Assembly (NCBI GenBank): GCA_964534375.1
Contig: CAZHPN010000035.1
Location: 1-40,859 of the forward strand
Length of the DNA stretch: 40,859 nucleotides
Direction: 5' to 3'
Source of the DNA: an uncultured bacterium
Lineage (GTDB): Bacteria > Lernaellota > Lernaellaia > Lernaellales > Lernaellaceae
The position numbers and the translations under genes are program-made. This document shows positions 2,541 to 27,745 of the stretch, one piece after another; position 1 is the first letter of the stretch; every line of letters begins with the position of its first letter. The notes under the pieces were generated by a model that saw only the letters and a list, made by a program, of their open reading frames with translations, did no database searches and was not told the origin of the DNA.

Positions 2541-3167
2541 GTGGAACACCAACTTGTGAACCTTTCGATGATCGGGGCGCGGGCCCTGCTGTATGTGCTT
2601 TTTCTGCTCTCGTTGCTGAGCATTGCGGTCGCCATCCTCAAGTATCGGCAGTACCGGCAGGACAATTCGTTGGGCCGCGACTTCCCCACCAAGCTGGTCA
2701 CGTGGCTGGAAGCGGGCGACGTGGCGGCTGCGCTGGCGTTCGTCGAGCGCGGGGCGGGGGCGACGGCCGCCGTATTGCGCGAAGGGCTCCGGAATTTCAA
2801 GGAAGGTCCGCAGGCGGTCGAGAAGATCATGGCGAGCCGCAACGTCCGCGAGAAGAACCGGCTGGAGGCGTACCTGGTGGTGCTCGGCACGATCGGCAAC
2901 AACGCGCCGTTCATCGGCCTGCTGGGCACCGTCATGGGCATTATCAAGGCCTTCCACGACTTGTCGCAAGCGACGGTGCAAGGGCCGCAGGCGGTCATGT
3001 CCGGCATCTCCGAGGCGCTGGTGGCGACCGCGGTCGGCTTGTTTGTGGCCATTCCGGCGGTCGTCTTGTTCAACTGGCTGCAGGGCAAGGCCAATTTGCT
3101 GCTGGACGAAGCGGATTCGACCGCGAAGATCGTGTTGGCGTACGCGGATCGCGCAAAAGGGGCATGA
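2541..3167 (+). CDS. exbB: MotA/TolQ/ExbB proton-channel family protein
   Basis: Three TM segments; LGTIGNNAPFIGLLGTVMGII and GISEALVATAVGLFVAIPA signatures. Confidence 0.93.
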   Translation: MEHQLVNLSMIGARALLYVLFLLSLLSIAVAILKYRQYRQDNSLGRDFPTKLVTWLEAGDVAAALAFVERGAGATAAVLREGLRNFKEGPQAVEKIMASRNVREKNRLEAYLVVLGTIGNNAPFIGLLGTVMGIIKAFHDLSQATVQGPQAVMSGISEALVATAVGLFVAIPAVVLFNWLQGKANLLLDEADSTAKIVLAYADRAKGA

Positions 3168-3168
3168 C

Positions 3169-3594
3169 ATGGCGGGAGCCGCAGGCAACAGCAAAGCGCC
3201 GATCACCAATATCAATGTCACACCGCTGGTGGATATTACGTTGGTGCTGCTCATCATTTTCATGGTGACGGCCACGATCATCACCGCGCCGCAAATCCCG
3301 ATCGAGTTGCCCAAGGCGGCGACCGGACAACGATCGGAGGCGGAAACCTTCACCGTCGTCGTCACCAAAACGAACGAACTGTTCCTCGACGGCCGGCCGA
3401 CCACGGAGACCGAAATCGGCAACTTCATCGATCAGCGCTTGAAGAATGAAGTCGATTTGCAGATGGTCATCAGCACGGACCGCGACGCGCTGCACGGCAA
3501 TGTGGTGCGCGTCATCGATTTGATGCGCAGCCACAACGTGCAGAAGTTTGCGATCAACGTGGAACCGGCCGACGAAGAAAAAGACAAGAAATGA
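3169..3594 (+). CDS. exbD: ExbD/TolR biopolymer transport protein
   Basis: INVTPLVDITLVLLIIFMVT with the conserved TM Asp; ATG 1 nt after the exbB stop; 141 aa. Confidence 0.93.
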   Translation: MAGAAGNSKAPITNINVTPLVDITLVLLIIFMVTATIITAPQIPIELPKAATGQRSEAETFTVVVTKTNELFLDGRPTTETEIGNFIDQRLKNEVDLQMVISTDRDALHGNVVRVIDLMRSHNVQKFAINVEPADEEKDKK

Positions 3595-4439
3595 ACATCG
3601 ACACCGCCCGAGCGGCCCGACCGTGGCGCGAATACGGCTCCTCCCTGGGAGGATCGGCGGTCCTGCACGTGCTGCTCATTCTGCTCTTCGCGTACGTGAC
3701 GCCGAAAATGATCGCCCACCGCTGGGTCGGCGGCCAGGTCATCTTCCAGCCCGTGAAGGCCAAAGAGGCGCAGGAACTCGCCAAGCCGAAGCCGCCGGTC
3801 CGCAAATTCGAAGAGCCGCCGACGCACGCCGAGGCGCCGTCCATCGCGGCGGCGCCGCCCGCGGAGAGAGATTTTCGTCCGCGCGCCGTTCACGAAACGG
3901 CGGGGCCGGATATGCTCTCGCTCGGCAAAGACTTTGCGCACGCGCCGCAAGACCAGATCAAAACGGTGGACCTGTCGCAGATACCTGTCACCCGCTCGGG
4001 CCGCGACGTCTCCAACTCGTTTCAGGTTCCGCAAAAACCGGGCGGCGCCGAACGCCGCGACAATTCGGCTATCTCTTTTCGCGACGCGCTCCCCGGCTTG
4101 GAAAACAAAGACGGGCGTTCGCCCGCGCAGGCGTATGACCCGAGCCTCGCGCCGGGCGGATCCGGCGTTGGCGCGGGCGGCCGACGCCGCGTCAGCGACA
4201 CGGCCGAAGGCGCGTTGTCGGCGGATCTGGGCGCGGCGTCGAAGAAGCCGGCCGCAAAGCCCAAGTCCGGCGTGGAGGATCTCGACGCGAGCAAATGGGA
4301 GCGAATCGAAATCGCCGGACCGGTGGCGCAGCATCAACCCGATTGCCTCAACGTCGCCGGCTACGTGTACGTCGGCAATTACCGGCTGATGTGCAAGAAC
4401 GATCAGATCGTCGCCGCCTGGCGAAAGAAAGAATACTAG
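3591..4439 (+). CDS. TonB/TolA-like energy transducer with atypical C-terminus
   Basis: N-terminal TM with S-x3-H (SAVLH), Pro/Lys-rich linker, overlaps the exbD stop; no recognisable TonB_C domain. Confidence 0.65.
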   Translation: MNIDTARAARPWREYGSSLGGSAVLHVLLILLFAYVTPKMIAHRWVGGQVIFQPVKAKEAQELAKPKPPVRKFEEPPTHAEAPSIAAAPPAERDFRPRAVHETAGPDMLSLGKDFAHAPQDQIKTVDLSQIPVTRSGRDVSNSFQVPQKPGGAERRDNSAISFRDALPGLENKDGRSPAQAYDPSLAPGGSGVGAGGRRRVSDTAEGALSADLGAASKKPAAKPKSGVEDLDASKWERIEIAGPVAQHQPDCLNVAGYVYVGNYRLMCKNDQIVAAWRKKEY

Positions 4440-4440
4440 C

Positions 4441-5439
4441 CTACCGGGCCTTTTTCTTCCCCACCGCGGGCTTGGCGTAAACCGTCAGGGAATTTTCCAT
4501 CGTCTCGACGACGAAGAGGTTGCGCTGCGGGTCGGCGGTGACCTCCAGCTTGATCGGCAACAGCGCGGACGATTCGGTGCCCAGCTCGTAATCGCCGGGC
4601 GGCAGATAGATCGAAAACGTGTTCGGCCGGTGCTCGGTCAAACGTTCGTTGGTGACCAGATAGCGGGAGACGCCGCGCAGGAAGTCTTCGCGGGCGACCA
4701 TGACGTAGTATTCGTTGACGTTCTTGGCCTTGGCCGCCACGCGGAAGACATCTTTCTTTTCGCCGAGCTTGTCGACCGACGCCTGGGTGAGGTTGCGGCC
4801 TTCGAACGTCACGCGCACGGTGTCGGTGCGCGCCCATTCGCCGAGGCCGTCTTTGATCCAGGCGCGGACCGGCCGCTGATCCTGGAAATTGTCGATGCGC
4901 ACGGTCAACGATTCGACGGTCGGATAGATCTTCCGCGCGCGTTCGATCAGGTCGGTCGCCGCGGCCGCGAAGCCTTCGTACCCTTTGGCGATGGCGTACA
5001 ACGCAAACGATTCGCTGATCCGGGAGGCGAGGGGATTGGCCGAGCCGGCGTCGTCAATATCGGAATTGGCGCCGATGCGCTCGCGCTCCTTTTCGTCGGC
5101 GGTCTCGCTTTGGCGGAATTCGAGCGGATACTCGACGTACTTGTAAATCAGGTCTTCGATCCGCTCGACCATGTCGCGCCGGTCCCACTGGTTGTTCGTG
5201 CGGCGAATCTCTTCGATCAGCCGGCAAATGTCGGAGTTGACCCAATCCAGACTCAGGTTCTGGAGGAAGAACGGATCCGCCTCGGGCGCCGTCGCCGCGG
5301 GCGGCGCGGCCGGCGCCGCCGGAGCGGGCGTTTCCGCCGAGCGCGCCGTCACGACGCCGAGAACCGAGAGCGCCAGCAGGCAAGCCAATGCGCCCAAACC
5401 CAGTCGCTTCACACTTCGCCTCCGTTGCATCGTTGTCAT
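4441..5439 (-). CDS. exported hypothetical protein (helical N-half, beta-rich C-half)
   Basis: Signal peptide, Pro/Ala linker, ATGA coupling with the upstream gene, LPPGDYEL beta-sandwich-like motif; 332 aa. Confidence 0.75.
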   Translation of the reverse strand: MTTMQRRRSVKRLGLGALACLLALSVLGVVTARSAETPAPAAPAAPPAATAPEADPFFLQNLSLDWVNSDICRLIEEIRRTNNQWDRRDMVERIEDLIYKYVEYPLEFRQSETADEKERERIGANSDIDDAGSANPLASRISESFALYAIAKGYEGFAAAATDLIERARKIYPTVESLTVRIDNFQDQRPVRAWIKDGLGEWARTDTVRVTFEGRNLTQASVDKLGEKKDVFRVAAKAKNVNEYYVMVAREDFLRGVSRYLVTNERLTEHRPNTFSIYLPPGDYELGTESSALLPIKLEVTADPQRNLFVVETMENSLTVYAKPAVGKKKAR

Positions 5440-6887
5440 TGGGGGGCTCCCACGTTCTGGCAGCCCTGTTCGTACTGCGACGACAGATCGCGCGCTTCGA
5501 TCGTTTCGCCGAAGCGGTTCAGATAGTTCACGTAGTATTGGTAGGCCCGGCAGAATTCGGGCGAATACGCGGCCCCGCGGCCGCGCTGCTGCTGTTTCTT
5601 CATCACGAGCTTGAAGGCGTGCGAACTCGCGGCGAGGCAGAGCGCCTTGTAGCTCTTGAAGATCTCGGGCTGATGATAATGTTCCGCCGCCAGCTTGTCC
5701 GCGGTCTCCGCGAGCAGGGTGAAGGTGACGGATTTGTTTTCCCAATCGAACCCGGCGTCGAACAGATAGGTCCGCAGCCCGACGATGCTGGCGTAGTCCT
5801 TGCGGAGATAATGCTCGTAGGCGAGGCCCGTGAGATTGGCGCCGAAGCTCTTTTGCAGTTTCGCGGTCAGTTCGGACCCGTCGACTTCATACGGGTAGCT
5901 CGCCCCGGGCACGCTGGCCGCCCGCTCGTTGAGCTTGCGCATGATCTGCAGGCCCTCGTTGGCGTTGTCGAACCCCAACTTGTAGTACGCGGCCAGTTTT
6001 TCCTTGTCGGAACTCGTGTACAGCGTGGCGAGGTACGCCACGTCGCTGGACAGCACGGCCCGCGCCTTGTTGGTTTTGACGCGTTTGAGCGCCTCGTTGT
6101 AGTTGTACAGCGCGCGCGTGAAGTGGTCATCGGTGGCCGGCGTCTGGTCGTATTGCTCCTGCTGCCGATCGCCCCGATATTTGTACATGCCGACGATGAT
6201 GTTGTTGTCGAAGTAGCTCAACTCCAGCAGTTCGCGCATCCACTCTTTGAAGATCTTCAGGTTGCCTTTGCGGACTTCGGTTTCGCCTTTGTCCGGATTG
6301 ATCATCGTAAAACGATCGGCCAGCCCGCGAATCATCGCCGCCAGCAGATGCGTCCGCGCGGGGTTCTTTTCGTTGTTCAACACGCGCTCGATCAGCGAGT
6401 CGCGCGCGTTCTGGCTCCAGACGAGCATGGTGTTCGAAAGGGTGTCGCGCGAGAAGTTTTCGGTCGCGTGCATCTTGAGCAGCGACTCCCACAGGTCGTT
6501 CAGGCCCTCTTTTTCGCGGGCGAGTTGATCCTTCGCGCCAGTCAGGCGATCCAGCGCTTTCAAGCGCGCCAGCCCCAGGTGATACGCGGCCTCTTCGGAG
6601 TAGCGAATCGCCACCGACTGCTCGAGGTAATCGATCGCGGTCGACAGGCGCTCAGTTTGACCGTCTTTTTTGTACAGCGCGAGTTCCGCCATGCCGCAGT
6701 ACTTCAGGATCACATCGACGCTCGGATCGGCCTGAATCGCGTCTTTGTTGGCGACGCACATCGCCGTCAGTTGCGGAAATTTGCTCGCGAGGAACAATTC
6801 CTTGTAGGATTCCCACCCGGCGACGGCCGGGGCGGCGACAATCGCGGCGCACAGGAGCGCCAGGGTCGCGTAACGCAAAAGCCTCAT
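5436..6887 (-). CDS. exported alpha-helical (TPR-like) hypothetical protein
   Basis: Signal peptide ending AVA-G, GGAGG RBS, helical patterns such as AIDYLEQSV..AAYHLGLARL; 483 aa. Confidence 0.75.
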   Translation of the reverse strand: MRLLRYATLALLCAAIVAAPAVAGWESYKELFLASKFPQLTAMCVANKDAIQADPSVDVILKYCGMAELALYKKDGQTERLSTAIDYLEQSVAIRYSEEAAYHLGLARLKALDRLTGAKDQLAREKEGLNDLWESLLKMHATENFSRDTLSNTMLVWSQNARDSLIERVLNNEKNPARTHLLAAMIRGLADRFTMINPDKGETEVRKGNLKIFKEWMRELLELSYFDNNIIVGMYKYRGDRQQEQYDQTPATDDHFTRALYNYNEALKRVKTNKARAVLSSDVAYLATLYTSSDKEKLAAYYKLGFDNANEGLQIMRKLNERAASVPGASYPYEVDGSELTAKLQKSFGANLTGLAYEHYLRKDYASIVGLRTYLFDAGFDWENKSVTFTLLAETADKLAAEHYHQPEIFKSYKALCLAASSHAFKLVMKKQQQRGRGAAYSPEFCRAYQYYVNYLNRFGETIEARDLSSQYEQGCQNVGAPQ

Positions 6888-6918
6888 CTTGATATCCCGA
6901 CCTCCGTCCGGCGCCGCG

Positions 6919-7782
6919 TCAGGGGTTCGACAACAAGCGGTGCATGATCGCGTCGTAATGCACTTTGTAGTTCACCTGGGCGAAGCCGGCGTATAAGCGA
7001 TACACGTGGTAGTCAATGCGAGTCGAGAGCCGCTGCATCTCGGTGTGGAAACAACAACCCGTAGCGACAACCCCGTAGCCGACGTACGTGCCGACGGCAT
7101 GCTCCCCGAGCTCTTTGGAGTATACCACGATGTCGCCGTACGCAATATCGGACGAATTGTCGACCCGTTCCATTTTTTCCGCGAAATACGGCTCGAAGCC
7201 CTTGTTCGGCGGCGGCGCCAGTTGGAACGGGGCCTGCAGCGTCGTTTGCAGAAAACCGATGTCGGTCAGGAAAAACCGGCCTTTTCTCATGTATTCCATG
7301 AGCTTGGCCGTGATCACCGCGCCTTCGACGTGTTGCAGGTGGTCGAGGACGCTGGTGTTGAGGTTTTCCGCCATCAGGCCGCAGGCGCCCTTGACGACAT
7401 CGAGTTCGAGAATGGTCTGGAAAGCGCCGCCGAGTTGCAGGAAGCGGCGCTGGCCCGTCACGCGCACGTCGTACAGGCAGGTGTTGTCGGCGTCGGCGAT
7501 CGTGAAATGATTCCAGGAGTTGGCGGCGAACGGAAAGTAGCCGCCTTTGCCGTTCCGCCGGAATTGGACGTTATGGTGCTGCTCCGCCACCTCGAGCGAC
7601 CGCGTGAAGACGTCGTAACTGGGCGGCGAAACGATATCCGTGACGCCCGCGCGGGCGTCGTCGCCGCTCGCGCCGGCCTTGGGCGCGGCAGTCGAAGCGC
7701 AACCCCATGCCGCCAAGGCGAGCAGGCCGAGCAGGGCGAGCGCCGCGGCGCTCGCCGCAAATCGTTTAGAATGCAAGGTCAC
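6919..7782 (-). CDS. lipoprotein with degenerate NlpC/P60-like C-terminal domain
   Basis: Lipobox-like AAWGC; GDIVVY..HAVGTYVGYG resembles NlpC/P60 GDLVFF..HVGIY.G.G. Confidence 0.6.
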   Translation of the reverse strand: MTLHSKRFAASAAALALLGLLALAAWGCASTAAPKAGASGDDARAGVTDIVSPPSYDVFTRSLEVAEQHHNVQFRRNGKGGYFPFAANSWNHFTIADADNTCLYDVRVTGQRRFLQLGGAFQTILELDVVKGACGLMAENLNTSVLDHLQHVEGAVITAKLMEYMRKGRFFLTDIGFLQTTLQAPFQLAPPPNKGFEPYFAEKMERVDNSSDIAYGDIVVYSKELGEHAVGTYVGYGVVATGCCFHTEMQRLSTRIDYHVYRLYAGFAQVNYKVHYDAIMHRLLSNP

Positions 7783-8755
7783 CGGCTCCCACCCTTCGTT
7801 CGTCGCGCGTGATCCCGATGAAAAAGCGCATTTTCGGATCGCCGACGCCGGACAACAGGCCCACGCCGCCGCCGACGGTCAGCGCCGTAAAATTGAGGTT
7901 TCGCCAATACTTGCGGTAGGCGAGAACGACTTCGGAGTAATCCAGATCCGGCGTGCCGAACGGCTTCTGCACTTGCGTCCGCGTCGCCGTATCCACGAGT
8001 ATTTGATGCGTGCCGGCGAAGCGGAACGCCATGCCCGCATTCAACGTCAACTCGTCGCCCAGCCGCAGGCCGAACTGCGGCGACTGTTCGCGGGCCGTGT
8101 AATATTTGTAGCCGACGTTGGCGGCGAGCGTCCACCAATCGCGGCCGAGGTCGAAAATGAACACCGGTTCGAGCGCCAGCCCGCGGTCGGTCGAGAAATT
8201 GTTTTCCCGGTAGGCGGGCGGCACGTCGAGGCGCGTCACAAACCCGATGCCGAGGCAATCCTGCCGCCGATTCAGGATCGTCCACTTGGCCTCGACGCGC
8301 AGGTCTTCCCAGGTGGCGACCGGTATCCCGGGGTATTTGGCCGTGTTCTCCAGTTCGCGGTACGCCACGAACGGCACGGCGACGCCGAGATCGACGAAAT
8401 TCAGCAACCCCACGGAAAACAGCGCCTGCACGCCGAATTGCTGCGCGATCAGCGGATGCAGGTTTTTGTTCTGATTCAGCACGTTCACCGGCTGGAACGC
8501 GTCATCGACGTAACCGCCGTAATACATGTGGGCCATCTCGAGCGGTTCCGAACCGTAGGTCCACAACACGCCGCTGCCGTCGGTGGTCGGCCAAAAATAA
8601 TGGATGTTCTTTTGCAGGATGTCTTCCGCGCGCGCCGGACTCGACGCCGCGAAACATAAGACCGCAAGCAGCAGCATTCTCCGTAAAAGCAATTTCACCT
8701 TCGTCATCCCAGGGATCAACCCCGCGGCTTCGCGGGCCTTTTCCCGAGTTGCCAT
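7766..8755 (-). CDS. outer-membrane beta-barrel protein resembling the N-terminal barrel of myxobacterial OmpA/TraB-type proteins
   Basis: Signal peptide (..SSPARA), alternating amphipathic strands, motifs VDLGVAVP, EDLRVEAK, LAANVGY and GVGDPKMRFFIGI; alternative start ATG 8707. Confidence 0.65.
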   Translation of the reverse strand: MATREKAREAAGLIPGMTKVKLLLRRMLLLAVLCFAASSPARAEDILQKNIHYFWPTTDGSGVLWTYGSEPLEMAHMYYGGYVDDAFQPVNVLNQNKNLHPLIAQQFGVQALFSVGLLNFVDLGVAVPFVAYRELENTAKYPGIPVATWEDLRVEAKWTILNRRQDCLGIGFVTRLDVPPAYRENNFSTDRGLALEPVFIFDLGRDWWTLAANVGYKYYTAREQSPQFGLRLGDELTLNAGMAFRFAGTHQILVDTATRTQVQKPFGTPDLDYSEVVLAYRKYWRNLNFTALTVGGGVGLLSGVGDPKMRFFIGITRDERRVGAGDLAF

Positions 8756-8761
8756 TTCCCG

Positions 8762-10291
8762 CTACCGAAACGCCTCAGCGCACCCGGCGCCGGTCAACTG
8801 CTCGCTCAGATGGTGACGATGCCGGGCCGTATCGTCGTCCGTAGTCGTATCGTCGTCGACCCCCGGCCAGCAACGGCCGTTTTCGCAATGGTTATCGGGG
8901 CCGCAGTCGACGCACGCTTGGGCGCCGCTGCCGCACGCGTCGTTGGCGTCGCCGGAGACGCACGTGTTGCCGCCGACGCAGCACCCGCTGGCGCAATCGG
9001 CGAGGTTGCAATAGTTGACGCAGGCGCCGTCCACGCAACGTTGCGTCGCCGTGCAGGCGACGCAGACGTTGCCGTCGATGCCGCACGCATTGTCCTCGTT
9101 GCCCGGCAGGCAAACGGTCCCGCTGCAACAACCGTGGCCGCAGTCGGTCGCATCGCAGGCCGTGACGCACGCGCCGTTTTCGCAATGGTTGCCCGGGCCG
9201 CAATTGACGCACGCCGCGCCGTTGCGGCCGCACTCGTTGTCGGCGTCGCCGCCGAGGCATTGCGTCCCGTTGCAGCAGCCGGACGCGCAGTCGGTCGCGT
9301 CGCACACCGGCACGCAGGCGCCGTATTCGCAGCGCGTCCCCGCGCTGCACGCGGTGCAGACGTCGCCGCTGGTGCCGCATTGGCCGTCGGTGTTGCCCGG
9401 CTCGCACTGCGAGCCGTTGCAGCAGCCGGCGCCGCAATTGACGGCGTCGCAGTAGGCGACGCAGGCCTGATTCTGGCAATGACTGCCGGCGCCGCAGTTG
9501 GCGCAGGCCTCGCCCTGGTGGCCGCAGGCGACGTCGGCCGTGCCGGGAACGCATTGCAGACCCTGGCAACAGCCGCCGGTGCACTCGGCGGAATCGCAGT
9601 ACGGCGCGCACGCGCCGTTTTCGCACCGGGTTCCCGTGACGCAGCCGATGCAGGCCTGGCCGGCGGTTCCGCAATCGGTGTCGCTGTTTCCCGGCAGGCA
9701 TTGGTTCGCGTCGCAACACCCGGTGGTGCAGTTGCCGAGGTCGCACACGGCGAGGCATTGCTGATTTTCGCAACTCTTGCCCGCGCCGCAGTTGGTGCAG
9801 GCAGCGCCGCCGGAGCCGCACTCGCTGTCGCTCGTGCCCGGCTGGCATTGAGCGCCGAGGCAGCAACCCGAAGGGCAATCGGTCTGGTCGCAATACGAGG
9901 TGCATTGGCCGTAGATGCAATTCTCGCCGGCGGTGCAACTGACGCAGGCCGCGCCGTCCGTGCCGCACTCGCTGTCGCTGTTTCCCGGCAGGCACAACGT
10001 GCCGACGCAACAACCGCTGGCGCAGTCGCTCGCGTCGCAATGCGCGGCGCGCTGACCGTTTGCGCCGCGCGGTCCGGCGCCGTCGGCAAAGCACGCCGCG
10101 TCGGCGCCGTCCGTCATCATTAATGAGGGAACGTCAACTAGCAGCCGGCTCGCGTGGCCCGCGGTCGCGTCGACTGTCGCCGTCGCCAGAGCCCGTGGCG
10201 AGGGTCCGGCGACGAGCAGGAACAGAAAAACAAAACCCAACGGCGCCAACAGAAATATCGGCTTGCCGGAGTTCAAATACATTTTCCGCAC
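8762..10291 (-). CDS. exported Cys-rich tandem-repeat protein (8 repeats of about 49 aa, 10 Cys each)
   Basis: Signal peptide; repeat C-x4-C-x3-CC-x4-C-x8-C-x6-C-x2-C-x5-C-x4-C; Asp/Thr tail ending GAGCAEAFR. Confidence 0.9.
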   Translation of the reverse strand: MRKMYLNSGKPIFLLAPLGFVFLFLLVAGPSPRALATATVDATAGHASRLLVDVPSLMMTDGADAACFADGAGPRGANGQRAAHCDASDCASGCCVGTLCLPGNSDSECGTDGAACVSCTAGENCIYGQCTSYCDQTDCPSGCCLGAQCQPGTSDSECGSGGAACTNCGAGKSCENQQCLAVCDLGNCTTGCCDANQCLPGNSDTDCGTAGQACIGCVTGTRCENGACAPYCDSAECTGGCCQGLQCVPGTADVACGHQGEACANCGAGSHCQNQACVAYCDAVNCGAGCCNGSQCEPGNTDGQCGTSGDVCTACSAGTRCEYGACVPVCDATDCASGCCNGTQCLGGDADNECGRNGAACVNCGPGNHCENGACVTACDATDCGHGCCSGTVCLPGNEDNACGIDGNVCVACTATQRCVDGACVNYCNLADCASGCCVGGNTCVSGDANDACGSGAQACVDCGPDNHCENGRCWPGVDDDTTTDDDTARHRHHLSEQLTGAGCAEAFR

Positions 10292-10337
10292 GGCGCTCTC
10301 CCCGCCGATCAGGACGATAGGCTGCGACCGGTGGCCG

Positions 10338-12257
10338 CTAACACGGACAATACGACGCCGACTGGCACCAATACCACGAAGGCGTGGTCGCGTCGCAACT
10401 GCATTCGCTATACGTTTCCGGGCCGTAGCAATTGCAAATGATGCCTAAATAATCGCATTCGCAGAGGCCCTGGCAAGGCTGGCTGCTGCAAAGCGTGCCG
10501 GAGTACCAGCACTCGAGCGAACCGCCGCTGTGGCAATTTCCCTGTTCGACGCCGTCGGTGCACGTGCCGCTGGTGTTGCAGCACGCGCCGATGGCGACGC
10601 ACGTCTTATTGTCGCAGGTCCCGAACTGGCCGCAATTCGTGCAGGCCACGCCGCCGTTGCCGCAATAGGCGTCCTGCGTGCCGGGCTGGCAGGAGGTGCC
10701 GTTGCAACAACCGTTGGGACAGTCGGCTTCGTTGCAGTAAGGAACGCAGTCGCCGTTCACGCATTCCGTGCCGGCGCCGCACGCGACGCAGGCCGCGCCG
10801 CTCGCGCCGCAGGCGTTGTCCGAGGTTCCGGAGACGCATTCGGACCCGCTGCAGCAACCGGTCGGGCAATCGCCGTAATCGCAATACGCCGTGCACGCGT
10901 TGTTTTGGCAGTCGTAATCGGTCGGGCATTCCACGCACGCGACGCCGCCCTTGCCGCACTGGTCGTCCGCCGAGCCCGACTCGCAGGTCGTGCCGTTGCA
11001 ACAGCCGTTCGGACACAGGCCGGGGTCGCACGCGGGCACGCAGATGTTGCTCTCACAGTGACCGGTGGGCAAACAATCCTGGCAGGTCGCGCCCGCCGTG
11101 CCGCAGTCGGTGTCCGAGGTCGCGGTGATGCAAGTCGTCCCACTGCAGCAGCCGTTCGGACACAAACTGGCGTTGCACGCGGGCACGCAGGCCTGGTTCT
11201 CGCATTGGGTTCCCGCGCCGCAACTGGTGCAGGGGGCGCCGCCCGTGCCGCACTGGGTGTTGGTCGTGCCCGATTCGCAGGTCGTGCCGTCGCAGCAGCC
11301 GCCGGAGCACAAGCCCGAATCGCAGGCCGCCACACATTGCTGTTTTTCGCAATGTTGGTCGGAGGCGCACGTTACGCAGGGGACGCCGCCCGACCCGCAC
11401 TCGCCGTCCGTCGTGCCCGCCTCGCAGGTCGTTCCGTCGCAACAGCCGCTCTCGCACAACGTCGAGTCGCAGGCCGCCACGCATTGCTGATTCTCGCAAT
11501 GTTGCGTCGGCGAGCAGGCCAGGCAGGCCGCGCCGCCCGTGCCGCACTGCGCGTCGGTCGTGCCCGTTTCGCAGGCCGTGCCGTCGCAGCAGCCGGTCGC
11601 GCACAAGCTCGAATCGCACGCGGCGACGCACTGCTGGTTCTCGCAATGATGGCCGGCGCCGCAATTCGCGCAGGGCGCGCCGCCGGTGCCGCATTGGCTG
11701 TCCGTGGTGCCGCCGACGCAGTTCGTGCCGTCGCAGCAGCCGGTCGCGCACAAGCTCGTGTCGCACGCGGCGACGCACTGCTGGTTTTCGCATTGATGCC
11801 CGGCGCCGCAGGCGGCGCACGTCGCGCCGTTCGAGCCGCATTCGGCGTCGGTGTTGCCGGTTTCGCAGGTGGTGCCGTTGCAGCAGCCGTTGGGGCACAA
11901 GGTCGCGTCGCACGCCGGCTCGCATTGCTGGTTCTCGCAATGTTCTGTGCCGGCCGCGCACGTCACGCAGGCCGCGCCGTTCGCGCCGCAGTTGGCATCG
12001 ACGTTTCCGGGCAGGCAGTTCGAGCCGTAGCAGCAGCCCGTGCAGTCGTTCGGATCGCAGACGGCGTCGTCGTCCGCCGGCGACGAATCGTCGTCGAGGG
12101 AGGTGTCGTCGTCGGGCGAGAGATCGTCGTCGGTCGCGTCATCGTCGTTGCGATGGACGGCGCTGGTGCTGGAGCCGCCGCTGGTGCCGCAAGACAATGC
12201 CATCATTAAGAGAACCAGGAATAACGATGTTATTGCGACCGGCTCGAAGCGTTTCAT
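10338..12257 (-). CDS. Cys-rich tandem-repeat lipoprotein (10 repeats of 49 aa plus a unique Cys-rich tip)
   Basis: ATG 12257 with GGAGG RBS, lipobox MALSC, Asp-rich linker, same 10-Cys repeat; 639 aa. Confidence 0.9.
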   Translation of the reverse strand: MKRFEPVAITSLFLVLLMMALSCGTSGGSSTSAVHRNDDDATDDDLSPDDDTSLDDDSSPADDDAVCDPNDCTGCCYGSNCLPGNVDANCGANGAACVTCAAGTEHCENQQCEPACDATLCPNGCCNGTTCETGNTDAECGSNGATCAACGAGHQCENQQCVAACDTSLCATGCCDGTNCVGGTTDSQCGTGGAPCANCGAGHHCENQQCVAACDSSLCATGCCDGTACETGTTDAQCGTGGAACLACSPTQHCENQQCVAACDSTLCESGCCDGTTCEAGTTDGECGSGGVPCVTCASDQHCEKQQCVAACDSGLCSGGCCDGTTCESGTTNTQCGTGGAPCTSCGAGTQCENQACVPACNASLCPNGCCSGTTCITATSDTDCGTAGATCQDCLPTGHCESNICVPACDPGLCPNGCCNGTTCESGSADDQCGKGGVACVECPTDYDCQNNACTAYCDYGDCPTGCCSGSECVSGTSDNACGASGAACVACGAGTECVNGDCVPYCNEADCPNGCCNGTSCQPGTQDAYCGNGGVACTNCGQFGTCDNKTCVAIGACCNTSGTCTDGVEQGNCHSGGSLECWYSGTLCSSQPCQGLCECDYLGIICNCYGPETYSECSCDATTPSWYWCQSASYCPC

Positions 12258-12430
12258 CGCGTCCTCCCCCAAGGTGTTTCGATCGGCCCGAGAACAAGCC
12301 AGAACAACTTCGGCGGCCGGGCGTCGGCGCCGGTTGGGCAACCCTGCAACTCTCGTCTTTATTGCCCGATTCGATCATGCCGAAACGGCGCTCGTGTTGT
12401 CAAGCGTGAAAACCGTTAACGATCTCGAAC

Positions 12431-13216: not shown

Positions 13217-14149
13217 TTAGTTCGGCGCGGGCAGCAATGGGACGAACGGCGGCACGTACGAGCCCGCGGGAAACTGGTAAACGGCCGCCGGCGGCTGTCG
13301 CCAAAAGAGGTCGCGGGCAGCACGATAGGCGGCGACGAACATCTTGTACGCGCCGCGGTGGTCCAGGCGGGCTTCTTTTGTCGCAGCGTGACACAGTGGC
13401 TGCGGGCGCTTCTCCAAATCGGCCGGACGGGAATGCGGGTCTTGCCGCAGCACCCACGCCGCCCCCATGACCTTGCGCTTTTCTCTCGCGAGTCGGTCGG
13501 CCGTTTCGGTTTCGACGGCGGTGACCATCTCCCGCCATTTCGTCGCTCGTTGCGCCGGCGTCAGGTCGGCGAAGCACGGCAGCGGCGTCAGCGGGACCTC
13601 GTAACGGGTGGAGAAATCGGATTCTTCTCGCGACTTGTCAGCGCGGGACGTTTCCGACATCTTCGTGCGATCAATCCACGTTCCGACCAACGCTTCGCCC
13701 TCGACGAGCGCCGTTACGCAGTTGACGCCGGGCCAATCGCCCGGCCGCTCGACGAGGCCCTCTTTGCAACCCTGGCTCAGCAAATAGTGAACGCGACCGA
13801 GGAGCGATTCGGCGTCGATGATCGGGATCGCGGCGTATCTCCGAGCCCAGAATTTGTCGTGCCAGTCGTAGAGCCGGCCGGCCTCTCGCGCGAGGTTGCC
13901 GTCGACGTAGTTCATGAATTTCGCCAAGGATTCCACGTCACGCGGCGCCAGAATCATGTGCAAATGGTTCGACATGATGACGATCAGGTGGACATGAACG
14001 TCGTAGAGCGACCTCGCCCGGCCGATGACTCCGAGAGCCAGGTCGTTGAGTTGTGGACCAGGTCGAAGCAGCAGGAAACCTTGCATCGTTCGGCACACGA
14101 CCTCGACCAAGGTGTAGGGTTTCGGCAGGTATCGGAGTCGTCGCGCCAT
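13217..14149 (-). mobile_element. REP-associated tyrosine (HUH/Y1) transposase, RAYT-like
   Basis: MARRLR start, VIMSNHLHMIL (HUH), FWARRY, Y..KEGLVERPGDWPG; flanked by inverted repeat clusters; 310 aa. Confidence 0.88.
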
Positions 14150-14227
14150 GCCCGTTCTTAAGGGCAAGATTTATGCCAAAAACCGCATCTAGTAATATCA
14201 AGCACTTACATTTTTGCCAAATACGTC

Positions 14228-14459: not shown

Positions 14460-14612
14460 CGAGGTGGCTGGCACTGGGCTGTTCCGAAGTGGCTGGCGCC
14501 TTTTGCCCCGGTCTGTTTCCGAAGCGTTTCCGAAGTGGCTGGCGCCTTTTGCCGGGCGCCTTTTGCCGCGCCTTTTGCCGACGGCTCCTTTTTGGGGGCG
14601 GCCCCTTTTGCG
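14460..14612 (+). repeat. REP-like repeat cluster upstream of the RAYT gene
   Basis: ccgaagtggctggcgccttttgcc at 14484 and 14530, followed by repeated gccttttgcc cores and degenerate copies. Confidence 0.8.
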
Positions 14613-14715
14613 CAACCGTTTAATGGTAAAGTCGTTCCCCGGGGGCGCTTTGGCGAACGCATTGACGATTTCGCGAATTATTGGTCAACTGCGGGTATTC
14701 ACAGGAGGAGCGCTC

Positions 14716-15768
14716 ATGGGCTTTCGTTTTTGGCGGCGCGTGCGAATTGCGCCGGGAATTTCGCTCAACCTCAGCAAGTCGGGCGCGTCGCTGTCGCTCG
14801 GCGGTCGCGGCGCGCACGTCACCGTCGGTCGGCGTGGCACGACAACCACCGTCGGCGTTCCCGGAACCGGTCTGTATTACACGGAACACTCGGCCGCCGC
14901 CGGACACCACGCGCCGGCGCCGCCGCCTCGGCCGGCCGCGCCGTCGCCGGCCGTCCGACCGGAAGACCGGCTGCACATGGGCTTCTTCGAGAAACTGTTC
15001 GCCTCGGACGAGGACAAGAAGTTGGTCGACGGCCTGCGCGAGGCCGCGGCGGGCCGCGAAGACGAAGCCCTGCCGCTGTTGGAACAAGCGCACGGCGTCG
15101 CTGACGCACAGTTCATGATGGGCGTCATCCGCCTGAAGAAAAACGAATACGAAGCGGCCGCGGAATCGCTCGAAAAAGCCGTCGCAGACTTGCCGCATTT
15201 GAATCATTATCTCCATAAATACGGCATTTCGGCCATCGTGAGTCTCCCGATCGCCGCCGGCTACGTCGCCCACGTCGGGGCGGACGAATGCGGCGTGCGC
15301 CTGATGCTCGCGGAGATTTATCATCAGCTCGGCGCGCACGATTCGGCGTTGGCCTGCGTCGATCGCCTCGTCGCGTTGCAGCCGAACGATCTGGTGGTGC
15401 GGCTGGCGCGCGTCGAGATGTTGCTCGATGGGCCGGCGCCCGATCCGGCCGCGTGCCGTGCGGCGGTCGACGCCGCGCAGGACGTCACGAACGAATCGAC
15501 CGTGCACGCGGCGCTGCTCCTGTACAAGGCCAAGGCGCTGCGGTTGCTCGGTCTTTTCGATGCGGCGATCCAGCTTCTCGGCCAAACCCTCCGGAAGACG
15601 AAAGACCGGCCGCCGGATCTGCTGCAAGCCCTGTTGTACGAACGCGCCCTCGCGCGCGAGGCCAAGGGCGGCGCCGGCGCCGCGCGGGCCGATTGGGAGA
15701 AACTATTCGCGCAAAATCCGCACTATGCGGACGTCGCCAATCGCCTCGGGCTCGCGCCGGTGGCGTAA
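14716..15768 (+). CDS. DUF4236 domain / tetratricopeptide repeat protein
   Basis: MGFRFWRRVRIAPGISLNLSKSGASLSLG..G.PGTGLYY is DUF4236-like; TPR-like C-terminus; AGGAGG RBS; 350 aa. Confidence 0.85.
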   Translation: MGFRFWRRVRIAPGISLNLSKSGASLSLGGRGAHVTVGRRGTTTTVGVPGTGLYYTEHSAAAGHHAPAPPPRPAAPSPAVRPEDRLHMGFFEKLFASDEDKKLVDGLREAAAGREDEALPLLEQAHGVADAQFMMGVIRLKKNEYEAAAESLEKAVADLPHLNHYLHKYGISAIVSLPIAAGYVAHVGADECGVRLMLAEIYHQLGAHDSALACVDRLVALQPNDLVVRLARVEMLLDGPAPDPAACRAAVDAAQDVTNESTVHAALLLYKAKALRLLGLFDAAIQLLGQTLRKTKDRPPDLLQALLYERALAREAKGGAGAARADWEKLFAQNPHYADVANRLGLAPVA

Positions 15769-15870
15769 CAGCGCATTTTGGCCGAGTTGAAATGCACGGT
15801 CCGGGCGCTTAAGCTGCGGTGCGCGTCAGCGGCGGCGCGCCGAATTTGTGAATTGTTGAGGAGGATCTTG

Positions 15871-16707
15871 ATGTTGCGCAGAAAACTCCCGTGGTTGGCG
15901 GCCTTGTTGTTCCTGGCGATCGCGGCGCATTGGGCGCTGGCCGGTGGAATCGAACTGGTCGTCGTCCGGCCCGGCGGCCCGAGCCCGTCGGACGAAGCGC
16001 AGGCCAACGTCGGCCAACTCATGAAGCAGATCGCGTCGCTGGCCGGCTGGCCCGCCGAGTCGGCCAGTTCCGCTTATTTCAATCGGGAAGATGAGGGCGT
16101 TCGTTGCATCCAGAGCCATAAGGCGGCGTTTGCGCTCGTCACTCCGGGCTTGTATCTGAAATATCGCACGCGCCTCGGCCTCGCGCCCGTGGTCAAGATG
16201 ACGATGAAGGGCGTCGCGACGACCCGGTTTTACGTCGTCGCCAAGAAAAGCGGCCCGGCTTCGCTCGCCGACCTGAAGGGCAAGACGATCGCCGGCGCGA
16301 CCTTGAACGAGCCGGAGTTCGTGCAGCGCATTGTCTTTGAAAATGCGCTCGTGCTGGGCAAAGACGTGACGGTCAAAGCGATGGGCGGTTTGCCGGCCCT
16401 GAAGGCGCTGCGCAACGGCGACCTGGCCGCGGTGGTGCTCGACGACAAGGAGCACGACGCGCTCGGCGGTTTGCCGTTCGCGGCGGCGTTCGAGACGATC
16501 TTCACGTCCAACCCCGTGCCGATCACCGGCATCATGGCCGTCGGCAAAAATGCGACGCCGGATCAGATCCAGGCGCTGGCCAAGGCCTGCGACAGCTTCT
16601 GCGCCTCGCCGGCCGGCAAGAACGTTTGCGACACCTTCGAAATCACGGGCTTTGCGCCGGCGACCGCGGCCGATTACGCGGACATGGTCGCGCGGTACGG
16701 GAAGTAG
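15871..16707 (+). CDS. PhnD/SsuA-type periplasmic substrate-binding protein
   Basis: Signal peptide, SLADLKGKTIA and ALRNGDLAAVV motifs; GAGGAGG RBS; 278 aa. Confidence 0.75.
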   Translation: MLRRKLPWLAALLFLAIAAHWALAGGIELVVVRPGGPSPSDEAQANVGQLMKQIASLAGWPAESASSAYFNREDEGVRCIQSHKAAFALVTPGLYLKYRTRLGLAPVVKMTMKGVATTRFYVVAKKSGPASLADLKGKTIAGATLNEPEFVQRIVFENALVLGKDVTVKAMGGLPALKALRNGDLAAVVLDDKEHDALGGLPFAAAFETIFTSNPVPITGIMAVGKNATPDQIQALAKACDSFCASPAGKNVCDTFEITGFAPATAADYADMVARYGK

Positions 16708-16743
16708 GCGCGGGCGCCCGGCCCGGGCAGGGGAATCCGTCCG

Positions 16744-18198
16744 ATGGGCGACAGCCGTCCGGCCGACGCGTTGCGCCCGGCCGCAGGGCCGGAGTGGCGC
16801 GGCGCGGTCGCTGTCGCCGCGGTCGCCGTTGCGGTCTACGCCGGCAAGGCGGCCAACGGCCTGCTGCGGTTCGACGACTATCGGTTCATCGTCGAGCGGC
16901 CGTCCGTCCGGTCGTTGCGCCATCTGCCGCAATTTTTCTTCCATGACGTCGAAGGCCTTTACCGTCCGCTGCGCGAGGCGTTGTACACGGTCAGTTACGA
17001 CGGGCTGGGCTTTGGCGCGAACCCGCTCGGCTATCAGCTCGTCGGCCTGGCGTTGCACGCGTTGTGCTGCGCCGCGTTTTATCTGCTGCTGCGCCGGCTG
17101 GCGGTCGAACCGCTGGCAGCCGGCGTCGCCGCCGTCGTCTTCGCGGCGCACCCGGCGCACGTCGAGCGCGTCGCGTGGGTGACGGCGTCGTACGATCTGC
17201 TCGGCGAGGCGTTTCTGCTGTTTGCGTTGGTCGGCCGCGCCGCCGCGCCGCCCGCCGACGGCCGCTTCGTGCGGCACGATTTCCTGTGGCTGACCGCCCT
17301 GGCCGCGGCGCTGTTTTCGTCGGAGTCGGCGGCGATCTTTCCCCTGCTGGCGCTGGCGCTCGACTACGCGCAAACGGCCGCGACCGGCGAGTGGCGGCGG
17401 TGGCCGCGGGTCAAACGCGATCTCGCCGGGCTCGCATTGGTCGCCGTATATTTCGCCTGCCGGTTCGCCGCGCTGGGGCGGCTCGACCGTGGCCGCGAGC
17501 GCCCGGCGCAAGGCTTTCTCGACAATTTGCTGGCGCAGGCGCTGGCCGACGTGCGCTATCTCCACATGTTCGTCGCGCCGTGGAAGGTGAATTTTTATCA
17601 AGTCATCCAGACGGCGAACCTCAGCGCCTACGGGCCCGCGTGGGCGGCGTTGGCGGCGCTCGCCGCGGCGTTGATCTTCGCGTATGTCGTGCGTCGCCGG
17701 GCTCCGCTGGGCGCGTTGGGAGTGTTCTGGTTCTTCGTCTGCCTGCTGCCGACCTCGCAAATCCTCGCGAACCGCAACCTCTTTCAGGAACGCTACGCGT
17801 ACACGGCGTACGGCGGCGTGGCGCTCCTGGTCGGTCTCGCCGCGGCGCCCGTTTGGCGGGCGGCGGGCGGACCTCGCCGGCGCGCGGCGTTGGCCGCGGC
17901 GGGCGCATTTTGTCTGGCGGCGCTCGTCGTGCTGACCAGCGACTACGTGAGCGCGTTCCACGACGATATGCGCCTGTGGACGCGCGTGGCGGCGCGCGAA
18001 CCGAATTCGGAAAAGGCGTTGACCAACCTCGCGGCCTCGTATATGTCGGTGGACAGATTCGACGCGGCCGTGCCCATTTTGCAGCGCGCCCTGCAGCGGA
18101 AACCCGGCTTCGAGCCGGCGCTGCGCGATCTGGCCGAGTGCTTCGCGCGGCTGGGCCGCTTGCCGGAGGCCGCCGAACAACGGACGCCCGCGCCGTAG
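16744..18198 (+). CDS. TMTC-like GT-C glycosyltransferase with C-terminal TPR
   Basis: FDD, YRPL, HPAHVERVAWV and QERYAY motifs, multiple TM segments, TPR tail. Confidence 0.85.
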   Translation: MGDSRPADALRPAAGPEWRGAVAVAAVAVAVYAGKAANGLLRFDDYRFIVERPSVRSLRHLPQFFFHDVEGLYRPLREALYTVSYDGLGFGANPLGYQLVGLALHALCCAAFYLLLRRLAVEPLAAGVAAVVFAAHPAHVERVAWVTASYDLLGEAFLLFALVGRAAAPPADGRFVRHDFLWLTALAAALFSSESAAIFPLLALALDYAQTAATGEWRRWPRVKRDLAGLALVAVYFACRFAALGRLDRGRERPAQGFLDNLLAQALADVRYLHMFVAPWKVNFYQVIQTANLSAYGPAWAALAALAAALIFAYVVRRRAPLGALGVFWFFVCLLPTSQILANRNLFQERYAYTAYGGVALLVGLAAAPVWRAAGGPRRRAALAAAGAFCLAALVVLTSDYVSAFHDDMRLWTRVAAREPNSEKALTNLAASYMSVDRFDAAVPILQRALQRKPGFEPALRDLAECFARLGRLPEAAEQRTPAP

Positions 18199-18223
18199 GC
18201 GAATTCGCCGGGAGTGAACCGGG

Positions 18224-24900: not shown

Positions 24901-24914
24901 AAGAAGAAACCATC

Positions 24915-25361
24915 ATGTTGCAAGAGTCGACGCGACGCTTTCGTATGACCCGCCAGCGCGACGTAATTCTCCGCGTGCTGCGCAATCTGCAATCTCACCC
25001 AACCGCGGACGAGTTGTACCACGCGGTGCGCAAGCAAGTGCCGCGCATCAGCCTGGGCACGGTCTACCGCAACCTCGATGTGTTGTGCGAGCAGGGCCTC
25101 GCGTGCCGGCTGGAAATCGGCGGCGGCCAGCGGCGGTATGACGCCGGGATGTGCCCGCACCTGCACGGCCGTTGCGTGCGCTGCGACAACGTGATCGATC
25201 TGCCGGCGGAAACCGCGCCGCCGGTGGAGATCAAGCTGCCCGACGATTTGGGCTTCCAGTTGACCGAATACCGGCTGGAGCTTTTCGGCATCTGCCGTTC
25301 GTGCCAGGAAGAGGCCGCGCACGCCGAAAACAAGAATCGCCGGCGGCTGTCGACGAACTAA
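24915..25361 (+). CDS. perR: Fur-family peroxide regulator (PerR-like)
   Basis: HPTADELY, SLGTVYRNL, HLH..CxxC, C-terminal CxxC; heads the rbr/SOR operon. Confidence 0.85.
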   Translation: MLQESTRRFRMTRQRDVILRVLRNLQSHPTADELYHAVRKQVPRISLGTVYRNLDVLCEQGLACRLEIGGGQRRYDAGMCPHLHGRCVRCDNVIDLPAETAPPVEIKLPDDLGFQLTEYRLELFGICRSCQEEAAHAENKNRRRLSTN

Positions 25362-25413
25362 CTCGGCGGAGATCGTCGCTGATTTCCGCCCGTCCATAAA
25401 TGAAGGAGGAACC

Positions 25414-25989: not shown

Positions 25990-26002
25990 CGGGCGGCCGG
26001 CC

Positions 26003-26488: not shown

Positions 26489-26539
26489 TTCGAGGCTGCG
26501 ACGAAAAGCCAACGTTTTTTGCAAAAGGAGAGTTACGCA

Positions 26540-26698
26540 ATGAAGTACGAGTGCATGGTGTGCGGTTACGTGTACGATCCGGAAAAGGGCGACGTGGAGA
26601 ACGGCGTGGCGGCCGGCACGCCCTTCGACAAGCTGGGCGCCGAATGGGTTTGCCCCGTCTGCGGCGCCGGGAAAGACCAATTCGAGCCGAATTCCTGA
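26540..26698 (+). CDS. rub: rubredoxin (52 aa; absent from the ORF track)
   Basis: [31 protein letters not shown] with two CxxC motifs; AAGGAG RBS. Confidence 0.97.
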
Positions 26699-26765
26699 CG
26701 CGCGGCTTGACTTGCCGCCGCTGGTTCTTACTTTCTGTTAAACCATTTCCCAAGGAGCGACGACC

Positions 26766-27155: not shown

Positions 27156-27158
27156 TTC

Positions 27159-27665: not shown

Positions 27666-27691
27666 TGGCGCGCTTTCCGTAAAAGTTGAGC

Positions 27692-27722
27692 AATTCCTCC
27701 CCGCCTGGGGAGGAATTTTTTT
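27692..27722 (+). terminator. Rho-independent terminator-like hairpin between ftn and cydA
   Basis: aattcctcccc-gcct-ggggaggaatt followed by a T run. Confidence 0.75.
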
Positions 27723-27745
27723 AGAAAACAAAGAGGAGGCGACCC

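Follow-up and report, generated by a model that had tools for sequence, protein, structure and literature searches.

Why does an operon for a proton-driven inner-membrane motor end one nucleotide from the end of an operon whose products all look exported, and do the two make one machine? This question is raised by a stretch of 40,859 nucleotides (the window; contig CAZHPN010000035.1 of assembly GCA_964534375.1, positions 1 to 40,859 of the forward strand) from an uncultured bacterium of the candidate phylum Lernaellota, in which exbB, exbD and a gene for a TonB-like protein, p282, converge on six genes that we call p332, p483, p287, barrel, cys509 and cys639. Here, we compare the locus with related genomes (G001 to G016; G000 is the source genome of the window, 94% complete, and f1, f2 and f3 are families) and report that the nine genes probably encode a single trans-envelope system of the Ton/Tol/Glt kind, driven by the proton-motive force, occurring almost only in Lernaellota and with a motor that has been replaced. 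What we observe is gene content, homology, folds, synteny and the pattern of motor swaps. The nine genes are as follows.

ExbB, 2541..3167 (+): 208 aa, ExbB/TolQ-family stator subunit, paralogue of the canonical ExbB of G000
ExbD, 3169..3594 (+): 141 aa, ExbD/TolR-family stator subunit, with the Asp-containing helix PLVDI read in the translation
p282, 3591..4439 (+): 282 aa, TonB/TolA-shaped transducer with SxxxH helix, linker and a C-terminal domain of about 45 aa with two Cys
p332, 4441..5439 (-): exported, helical (TPR-like) N-domain and mixed/beta C-terminal part, without known family
p483, 5436..6887 (-): exported helical-repeat (TPR-like) protein, the marker of the module
p287, 6919..7782 (-): lipoprotein with lipobox-like AAWGC, beta N-domain and NlpC/P60-fold C-domain, probably non-catalytic
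barrel, 7766..8755 (-): 329 aa, outer-membrane barrel of TraB-N/Phenol_MetA_deg type without OmpA domain, alternative start at 8707
cys509, 8762..10291 (-): secreted, eight 49-aa 10-Cys repeats, acidic linker and tail LTGAGCAEAFR
cys639, 10338..12257 (-): lipoprotein with lipobox-like MALSC, ten 49-aa 10-Cys repeats and a Cys-rich C-terminal region

All nine open reading frames (ORFs) lie where an earlier note on this DNA, made from the sequence alone, had put them, with the exbB-exbD-tonB-like operon 1 nt from the six-gene exported-protein operon. ExbB and ExbD are 1 nt apart, ExbD and p282 overlap (-4), and the convergent stops of p282 and p332 are separated by 1 nt. On the - strand the six-gene operon runs, 5' to 3', cys639, cys509, barrel, p287, p483, p332 with gaps of -17 to 46 nt (cys509/cys639 46, barrel/cys509 6, p287/barrel -17, p483/p287 31, p332/p483 -4), and all six products carry a signal-peptide-like or lipobox-like N-terminus, read by eye from the translations without a predictor. 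The note had also stated that the window has no TonB-dependent receptor, TolB or Pal, and indeed none of these families is found among the 32 window ORFs scanned; the three matches to TonB-dependent receptor barrels in G000 are all on other contigs.

The window ExbB and ExbD belong to their Pfam families by a wide score (PF01618, E 2.8e-34, 118.1 bits vs a gathering score of 22.9; PF02472, E 7.4e-28, 97.6 bits vs 25.4), and they reach none of the NCBIfam equivalog cut-offs for TolQ, ExbB, TolR and ExbD. They are 70% and 60% identical, respectively, to the canonical pair of G000 on contig C71, where ExbB, then ExbD, then a TonB_C protein are encoded; a tolQ-tolR-tolA-like locus is found on contig C3 of the same genome. 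The third product, p282, has a TonB-like topology, i.e., a hydrophobic N-terminal helix with a transmembrane segment at residue 19 and the motif SAVLH (SxxxH); a role of this motif, in its SHLS form, in docking of the helix on the motor is described in the available part of PMC12204202. The rest of p282 is not that of a TonB. It matches no Pfam family at E <= 0.1, including TonB_C (PF03544/PF13103), and has no meaningful NCBIfam match; its counterparts in G004 and G010 match no Pfam family at E <= 0.01, in the same scan in which genuine TonB proteins of G000 and G015 reach TonB_C with E 2e-18 and 1e-18. Profile searches of the PDB with the p282 family gave nothing meaningful (matches in low-complexity Pro-rich regions), and a word-based search with residues 222-282 returned p282 itself only, among eight candidates. 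A complex prediction of the p282 C-terminal domain with barrel plus p287 (score 0.00, mark 0.32) speaks neither for nor against contact.

What p282 is becomes clear from the related genomes. The order barrel-p287-p483-p332 is kept in every locus that reaches far enough, with the p332 orthologue adjoining p483 throughout, and barrel orthologues are found in 16 of the 60 relatives searched, 15 of the 16 being of the window's class. In nine related genomes the module comes with its own deeply divergent MotA/ExbB-ExbD pair, which we call the dedicated stator. Its genes directly follow p332 on the same strand (MotA_ExbB PF01618, E 3.9e-11 / 2.3e-10; ExbD PF02472, E 3.2e-6 / 1e-5), as seen in six of six genome loci and four of four metagenome loci of the non-swapped type that extend past p332; in G002, G005 and G009 the stator shares a contig with p483. 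The dedicated stators form a clade apart from all ExbBD/TolQR of the same genomes, on branches of 5.4 and 8.6 substitutions per site. Between p287 and p483, a 311-341-aa transducer gene is present in six aligned loci (G001, G007, G008, G013, G015 and G016) and, by tblastn, in G012. This in-operon transducer is built of a conserved cytoplasmic domain of about 90 aa, one helix, a Pro-rich linker and a C-terminal domain of about 45 aa, and the last of these is shared with p282, with invariant W236, G243, A246, C252, G262, C268, I273, A276 and W277. SxxxH is absent from seven of seven in-operon transducers and present in TonB and in the TolA-like proteins that these genomes encode. Within G000, p282 is the only match to the in-operon transducer of G001 (E 2.2e-7).

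The dedicated stator is missing from four genomes, i.e., G000 (no match in a nearly complete genome), G004, G010 and G011, and in all four an ExbB-ExbD pair is followed by a protein with the p282-type C-terminal domain; SxxxH is present in the three of these transducers whose sequence was inspected (G000, G004 and G010). G004 keeps the convergent layout of the window, with 79% (ExbB), 76% (ExbD) and 46% (p282) identity. G010 and G011 make up genus g8 of family f3, and on the module contig of G010 there is no transducer gene between p287 and p483. The G010 transducer is, by its sequence, a chimera of a TonB-type helix and the C-terminal domain of an in-operon transducer: residues 10-49 match the N-terminus of genuine TonB (E 2e-10), and the match of residues 225-307 is to the in-operon transducer of f3 (E 4e-14). 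Please note that BLASTP of p282 against the TonB of G000 finds no significant similarity, so that the chimeric origin can be read directly for G010 only and is suggested in the window by the SxxxH motif. In a concatenated tree the transducer-linked ExbBD of f1 falls inside the f1/f2 canonical clade (98/100) and that of f3 falls outside it, nearest to the canonical pair of f3 (63.6% vs 55-58%); the C-terminal domain of each swapped transducer resembles that of its own family. The sequence relationships indicate that a duplicated ordinary ExbBD replaced the dedicated stator at least twice, with an exchange for a TonB-type helix each time. That stator and helix were replaced together, and repeatedly, is a strong argument for a single system of stator, transducer and module.

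The proposal of the earlier note that the motor and the operon of exported proteins form a unit is thus upheld, by way of the C-terminal domain that p282 shares with the in-operon transducers and of the stator missing from G000. Two of the checks named in it came out divided. The window ExbBD does group with ordinary TonB-serving ExbBD, while p282 is a homologue of the module transducer; and the convergent adjacency of motor and operon is kept in G004 only, while the barrel-p287-p483-p332 order, with a stator of its own, is kept in relatives.

The family f3 allows a view of the module in other surroundings, which we describe here as a side observation. In all four f3 loci (G010, G013, G015 and G016) the module adjoins NamZ, and loci that reach further hold FtsX, an M23 peptidase, an S41 protease and a YibQ-type deacetylase, as seen in G015; FtsE and FtsX are also found at the G013 locus. 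The G015 neighbourhood has in addition an IS200-like gene and a protein with two FHA domains; an FHA protein is encoded upstream of the barrel, and G013 has a homologue of its gene in the corresponding place. These surroundings are a cell-wall/division neighbourhood that is absent from f1 and f2. At the G016 locus (L028, G016:C1:386000-405999) there are two ExbD-like genes, extra transducer pieces and split p332 and p287 matches, which suggests duplication, frameshifts or assembly errors. The f3 neighbourhoods lie as follows.

L027, 1479-9005: f3 neighbourhood
L029, 11147-19398: f3 neighbourhood
L030, 331-1497: f3 neighbourhood

The outer-membrane part of the module includes the barrel, which is single-copy in G000. 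Over positions 3-292 of the 522 in the profile, it matches the NCBIfam model of TraB (NF033763) with E 9.1e-14, at 50.3 bits vs a cut-off of 700, and the G001 orthologue matches the model with E 5.8e-19; no OmpA Pfam match is found on the window barrel. In structure, the barrel model comes nearest to proteins that join a barrel to OmpA, most of them from Myxococcota, and to the Phenol_MetA_deg family of barrels (template-modelling score 0.76-0.84). The lipoprotein p287, encoded next to it, has a model (pLDDT 74.5) with an NlpC/P60 fold at residues ~137-267: it aligns with MepS at Z 11.4 (124 residues, rmsd 3.9), and the top 47 rows of the structure search are all of NlpC/P60/CHAP type, the next row being at Z 4.5. 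We aligned the p287 family (nine members) by hidden Markov model (HMM) to MepS, Spr and CwlO. At the position of the MepS catalytic Cys the family has D or G, and both His positions are variable; the domain is for this reason probably non-catalytic, and it may bind peptidoglycan, by analogy with RipD, a non-catalytic peptidoglycan-binding protein that is among the fold matches.

The two remaining core proteins are seemingly periplasmic helical repeats. For p483, no Pfam family scores over its cut-off and no TPR family matches at E <= 0.1; TPR-like is a lead only, from a language-model feature score of 0.93 with a template-modelling score below 0.5. The p332 model (pLDDT 67, predicted template-modelling score 0.68) has no Foldseek match in the PDB at E <= 0.001, and a wide structure search returns generic helical-repeat rows only (Z <= 8.8, residues 55-204), with the C-terminal half barely covered. 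p332 matches no Pfam family, TPR included (E <= 0.1), and no PDB sequence; profile searches of the PDB with p483 and p332 gave nothing meaningful (matches in low-complexity Pro-rich regions).

The Cys-repeat proteins were counted by the earlier note among the parts of the machine, and this part of its proposal did not hold, as f3 loci have none: families f1 and f2 have one or more Cys-rich genes upstream of the barrel, and near the f3 module there is no Cys-rich gene. The repeat unit of cys639 and cys509 is exactly 49 aa with 10 Cys, in 10 and 8 copies, respectively, and the two proteins are 49% identical. Neither matches any Pfam or NCBIfam family at E <= 0.1, including PA14, TIGR04201 and MYXO-CTERM. 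The repeat family has 229 homologues, and all printed organism names are Myxococcota or "Deltaproteobacteria bacterium"; a lipobox-like Cys stands at the N-terminus of six of the six homologues whose sequences were read, and a C2 domain (PF00168) occurs on about 16 of 120 listed repeat-family proteins (P0058-P0177). In G001, G004, G005 and G007 the place upstream of the barrel is taken by one protein of ~1020-1068 aa with a globular N-region of ~400 aa and 26-aa CNG-type repeats, and these relatives (1019-1068 aa) match no NCBIfam family. In G008 it is taken by a 616-aa protein with 10 MopE-type motifs (PF11617, E 3e-100).

What these proteins have in common is their end. After an acidic linker, six of six f1-type Cys-rich proteins encoded beside the barrel terminate in L[VT]G[GA]GC[GA]xxxR-COOH while their repeat types differ, and the tag is common to three different repeat architectures; the Cys-rich protein of G008 ends in NGSCQGR. 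The tag is without a transmembrane helix, unlike MYXO-CTERM. We see in this short tag on unrelated Cys-repeat proteins a candidate sorting or docking signal. As a genome-wide sorting tag the GxGC...R tail was rejected for G000: 11 ORFs end in GC-x4-R, and on inspection by eye cys509 was judged the sole real gene among them, the other 10 having the look of spurious Arg-rich frames. The carriers of the tag are these.

8762-8800 of the window (-): C-terminal tag of cys509
C-termini of L021, L022, L023, L024 and L049: C-terminal tag at the other loci

The p483 family marks the module in 14 of the 17 Lernaellota genomes examined. No member turned up in G003, G006 and G014 (98%, 84% and 90% complete), where the dedicated stator has no match (G003, G006) or a marginal one only (G014, E 8.2e-4, 24% identity) and where the transducer domain is not found either, Pro-rich stretches alone being matched. 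Among 1.84 billion representative proteins the p483 profile has 23 matches at E <= 0.001; for 10 clusters of the family that were looked up, few names are given, all of them "hypothetical protein". A word search with the dedicated stator returned 22 relatives, one from Candidatus Lernaella stagnicola. The system is thus almost entirely confined to the candidate phylum Lernaellota. As a side observation, a further contig of G012 bears a second copy of the p483 family (G012:C184:148-1674), which is more divergent and has one TGA inside the match. Concerning expression, contigs of four RNA libraries (four study codes) match pieces of exbB/exbD, p332, p483, p287, cys509 and cys639, many with 0 mismatches, and one 501-nt contig (4274-4774) spans the convergent p282/p332 junction. 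At exbD positions 3463 and 3475 the contigs of RNA libraries X4 and X5 have G where the window has A (one contig per run), probably strain variation.

Considering the parts together, we picture the machine as follows; its physical contacts, its use of the proton-motive force and its output are what we infer. An inner-membrane ExbB-ExbD stator would drive p282 by the proton gradient. p282 would dock on the stator through its TonB-type SxxxH helix and span the periplasm, and its two-Cys end domain, specific to this system, would act on a conserved partner among p483, p332, p287 and barrel. TPR-like p483 and p332 would make up the periplasmic part, and the TraB-N-type barrel with the p287 lipoprotein the outer-membrane pair, in which the NlpC/P60 domain of p287 could be a peptidoglycan-binding substitute for the OmpA domain of TraB, i.e., barrel plus p287 would resemble a functionally split TraB. 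Where a tagged Cys-repeat "stalk" protein is present (f1/f2), the barrel-p287 unit may hold it. In the swapped genomes, the ancestral dedicated stator and in-operon transducer would have been lost, with a duplicated ordinary ExbBD and a chimeric gene for TonB helix and transducer C-terminal domain taking over. As for the output, our first guess is that the machine exerts force on a surface-protein complex of the outer membrane, or exposes it.

How does this compare with the known systems? From the Ton system, the locus has ExbB/ExbD that are close paralogues of the canonical pair, the same gene order and the SxxxH helix in p282; unlike Ton, p282 has a module-specific end domain in place of TonB_C and no TonB-dependent receptor is linked. 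Like Tol-Pal, there is a proton stator, a periplasm-spanning transducer, a TPR-type periplasmic partner and a lipoprotein of the outer membrane with a domain that likely binds peptidoglycan, but the module lacks a TolB propeller and a Pal/OmpA domain and G000 has its separate tolQRA-like locus. The Agl-Glt machine of Myxococcus xanthus, as far as described in the available part of PMC11761067, unites a TolQR-type motor and TonB-like proteins that have cytoplasmic N-domains with TPR proteins, barrels of the outer membrane, a lipoprotein and an adhesin on the cell surface. The present system shares with Agl-Glt/Nfs a proton motor, a bitopic transducer (cytoplasmic N-domain, one helix, Pro-rich linker), TPR-like proteins, a barrel with a lipoprotein and a Cys-containing surface protein. 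It differs in having 7 core genes vs at least 17 Glt proteins, a transducer end domain that is not TonB_C and a lipoprotein of NlpC/P60 fold. The earlier note's description of a Glt/TraAB-like parts list without evident Glt orthology agrees with our NCBIfam comparison, whose single Glt match is GltJ (E 0.039), in the Pro-rich linker of a relative's protein.

With TraA-TraB the likeness lies in the barrel, whose homology is to the N-terminal part of TraB (E 9e-14 to 6e-19), and in the general build of the G001, G004 and G005 proteins, which like TraA have a globular region at the N-terminus, then a stalk of Cys repeats and at the C-terminus a tag that contains Cys. We know of no motor or TonB-like protein used by TraAB. 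The gene of a secreted Cys-repeat protein stands directly upstream of the barrel, as traA does before traB in the accessible text of PMC3325183, where TraA is characterized by a PA14 domain, TIGR04201 Cys repeats and MYXO-CTERM (TIGR03901). In contrast, the barrel here is without OmpA, the PA14, TIGR04201 and MYXO-CTERM models are unmatched and the tag has no transmembrane helix. A fourth comparison is with the periplasmic force transducers with a vWA C-terminal domain of Williams-Jones et al. 2025, who, in the available part of that paper (PMC12204202), expect more such systems to await discovery. Those transducers have a TolA/TonB-like topology, a SHLS-type helix, a disordered linker and another globular end domain, and are encoded beside tolQR-like and TPR genes. 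Here the end domain is the ~45-aa two-Cys one, the outer-membrane module is another, and in the ancestral form the stator is a separate, divergent one and the helix lacks SxxxH. The machine fits their picture, because the topology is the same with a different end domain and outer-membrane module. In its working the system resembles Ton, Tol and Glt and it belongs to none of them, since TonB_C, TolB and Pal are absent, Glt orthology is undetected and the features that define TraA and TraB are missing; the assembly is undescribed.

Several points weigh against reading the nine genes as one machine, or against parts of that reading. The Cys-repeat proteins are accessory, not core, in view of the f3 loci without them, and any adhesin role is therefore outside the core. 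At about 65-70% identity, the window ExbBD stands so near to the canonical pair that TonB could be a further client of it, or its actual one. The cassette of ExbBD and transducer in G010 is off the module contig, with no module gene in the 15 kb around it, and in G011 it is likewise on another contig, of which ~3.3 kb was examined; adjacency is hence not required, and in the window it may be partly accidental. All genomes are uncultured metagenome-assembled genomes of one small phylum (17), and the counts are therefore not independent. The loss of catalytic residues in p287 is read from a weak HMM alignment (E 0.06-0.4), and the folds of p483 and p332 are leads to generic helical repeats. The RNA matches give a weak hint that both operons are expressed, as they come from assembled contigs that are blind to strand, level and shared transcript, and RNA libraries can hold DNA.

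The simplest rival is that the two operons are chance neighbours, ExbB-ExbD-p282 being an ordinary Ton system for receptors encoded elsewhere that abuts an unrelated operon. The identity to the canonical pair, the three receptor-barrel matches of G000 with its six TonB_C matches (five over the Pfam cut-off) and the convergent adjacency in G004 only can all be cited for it. We consider it highly improbable: p282 is without the TonB_C that genuine TonB proteins show at E about 1e-18, its C-terminal domain is that of the in-operon transducers, and the four genomes with the cassette are exactly those without the dedicated stator. An export or surface-display system, in which the motor would power passage or anchoring of tagged Cys-rich cargo via the barrel as in type 9 secretion (GldLM/PorLM, C-terminal signal), appears improbable as well. 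The tag kept across three repeat architectures, cys509 as the one G000 gene judged real with such an end and the papain-like fold of the p287 lipoprotein speak for it, against a ~300-aa TraB-N/Phenol_MetA_deg-like barrel that is not a known protein translocon, catalytic residues of p287 that are not conserved and an f3 core with no tagged cargo nearby.

The remaining two rivals concern the output. Tol-Pal-like maintenance, i.e., a second proton-driven tether between outer membrane and peptidoglycan or a division system with the Cys-repeat proteins as incidental passengers, is doubtful though to be taken seriously: a Tol-like output is favored by the f3 neighbors NamZ and, further out, FtsX, M23 peptidase, S41 protease and YibQ-type deacetylase, and the RipD-like absence of a canonical triad in the NlpC/P60 fold of p287, the near-universal core (14/17 genomes), as for a housekeeping function, and the missing Cys proteins of f3 point the same way. 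However, G000 already has a tolQ-tolR-tolA-like locus on C3, the module has no TolB- or Pal-like protein and is missing from three genomes that are 84-98% complete, and TolA has no counterpart of the ~90-aa cytoplasmic domain of the in-operon transducers. The reading of the earlier note, a Glt-/TraAB-like surface apparatus whose motor moves or unmasks a Cys-stalk adhesin on a barrel-lipoprotein complex for gliding, adhesion or cell-cell contact, is a possible one to which we give tentative credit. An adhesin-type output is favored by the ancestral cytoplasmic domain of the transducer, the FHA neighbor and the Cys-stalk proteins. The parts run parallel to the Agl-Glt motor, TonB-like and TPR proteins, barrels, lipoprotein and adhesin, and the FHA protein upstream of the barrel (G015, homologue in G013) recalls the FHA domains of GltG (both from the available part of PMC11761067); the Cys-repeat gene immediately precedes a TraB-type barrel, as traA precedes traB (accessible text of PMC3325183); and the tag is kept on otherwise unrelated Cys-rich proteins. 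Against this, no sequence orthology to Glt or TraA was detected in the Pfam and NCBIfam scans, nor any PA14, TIGR04201 or MYXO-CTERM match, the Cys proteins are not core, the transducers of type B lost the cytoplasmic domain, and the accessible main text of the phylum description contains no mention of gliding, TonB, ExbB, adhesion or cysteine-rich proteins. A bolder form, which we regard as rather unlikely, is that the barrel/pseudo-NlpC/P60 unit captures interchangeable Cys-repeat stalks via L-V-G-G-G-C-G-x-x-x-R-COOH and that the motor moves, exposes or exchanges them; it would be an apparatus for gliding or kin contact with an origin separate from that of Glt and TraAB.

The one-machine reading has its main interest in the repeated motor replacement and in the candidate docking tag. 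The double replacement of the stator is a natural experiment on which part of a transducer sets the choice of motor, the membrane helix being the part that was exchanged; if true, two independent swaps would mean that 5:2 stators are interchangeable when the transducer helix is exchanged along with them. The locus would be a further member of the small set of proton-motive-force systems that reach from inner to outer membrane (Ton, Tol, Glt/Nfs, type 9 secretion), and what is new here is the transducer end domain and the periplasmic parts, in a phylum without a cultured member. It is also suggested that an iron-uptake annotation is unwarranted for ExbBD paralogues beside "TonB-like" genes without TonB_C.

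Other features of the window and of G000 are given for completeness. The G+C content of the window is 61-69%. Promoter-like consensus sites in the region number 6 vs 1.4 expected, and a terminator scan of the region gave no signal (12 found vs 13.9 expected). The site upstream of cys639 is the following.

Promoter-like site, 12374..12403 (-): TTGACA-18-CATGAT, 10 of 12 consensus positions

Upstream of exbB, a papain-family C1 cysteine peptidase (849-2087, -, PF00112, E 6.8e-46) adjoins a chagasin-type I42 peptidase inhibitor (479-937, -, E 4.7e-17), which has the look of a protease-inhibitor pair. On the other side, a 316-aa ORF at 13217-14167 (-) has a weak match to IS200-like Y1 transposases (E 1.3e-5), and 14464-19936 (+) encodes a DUF4236+TPR protein, a phosphonate-binding-type periplasmic protein and two large TPR proteins. 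Elsewhere in G000, a fourth MotA_ExbB locus (L040 5247-8625, G000:C60) has an ExbB-like gene, two ExbD-like genes and two further membrane proteins; FliG_C is matched in a single 502-aa frame, and the 12 T2SSE matches are pilus or secretion ATPases and silent on the module. Further along the window, at 24903-30096, there is an oxidative-stress/low-oxygen cluster with a Fur-family protein, rubrerythrin, desulfoferrodoxin, a ferritin-like protein and the cytochrome bd oxidase subunits I and II.

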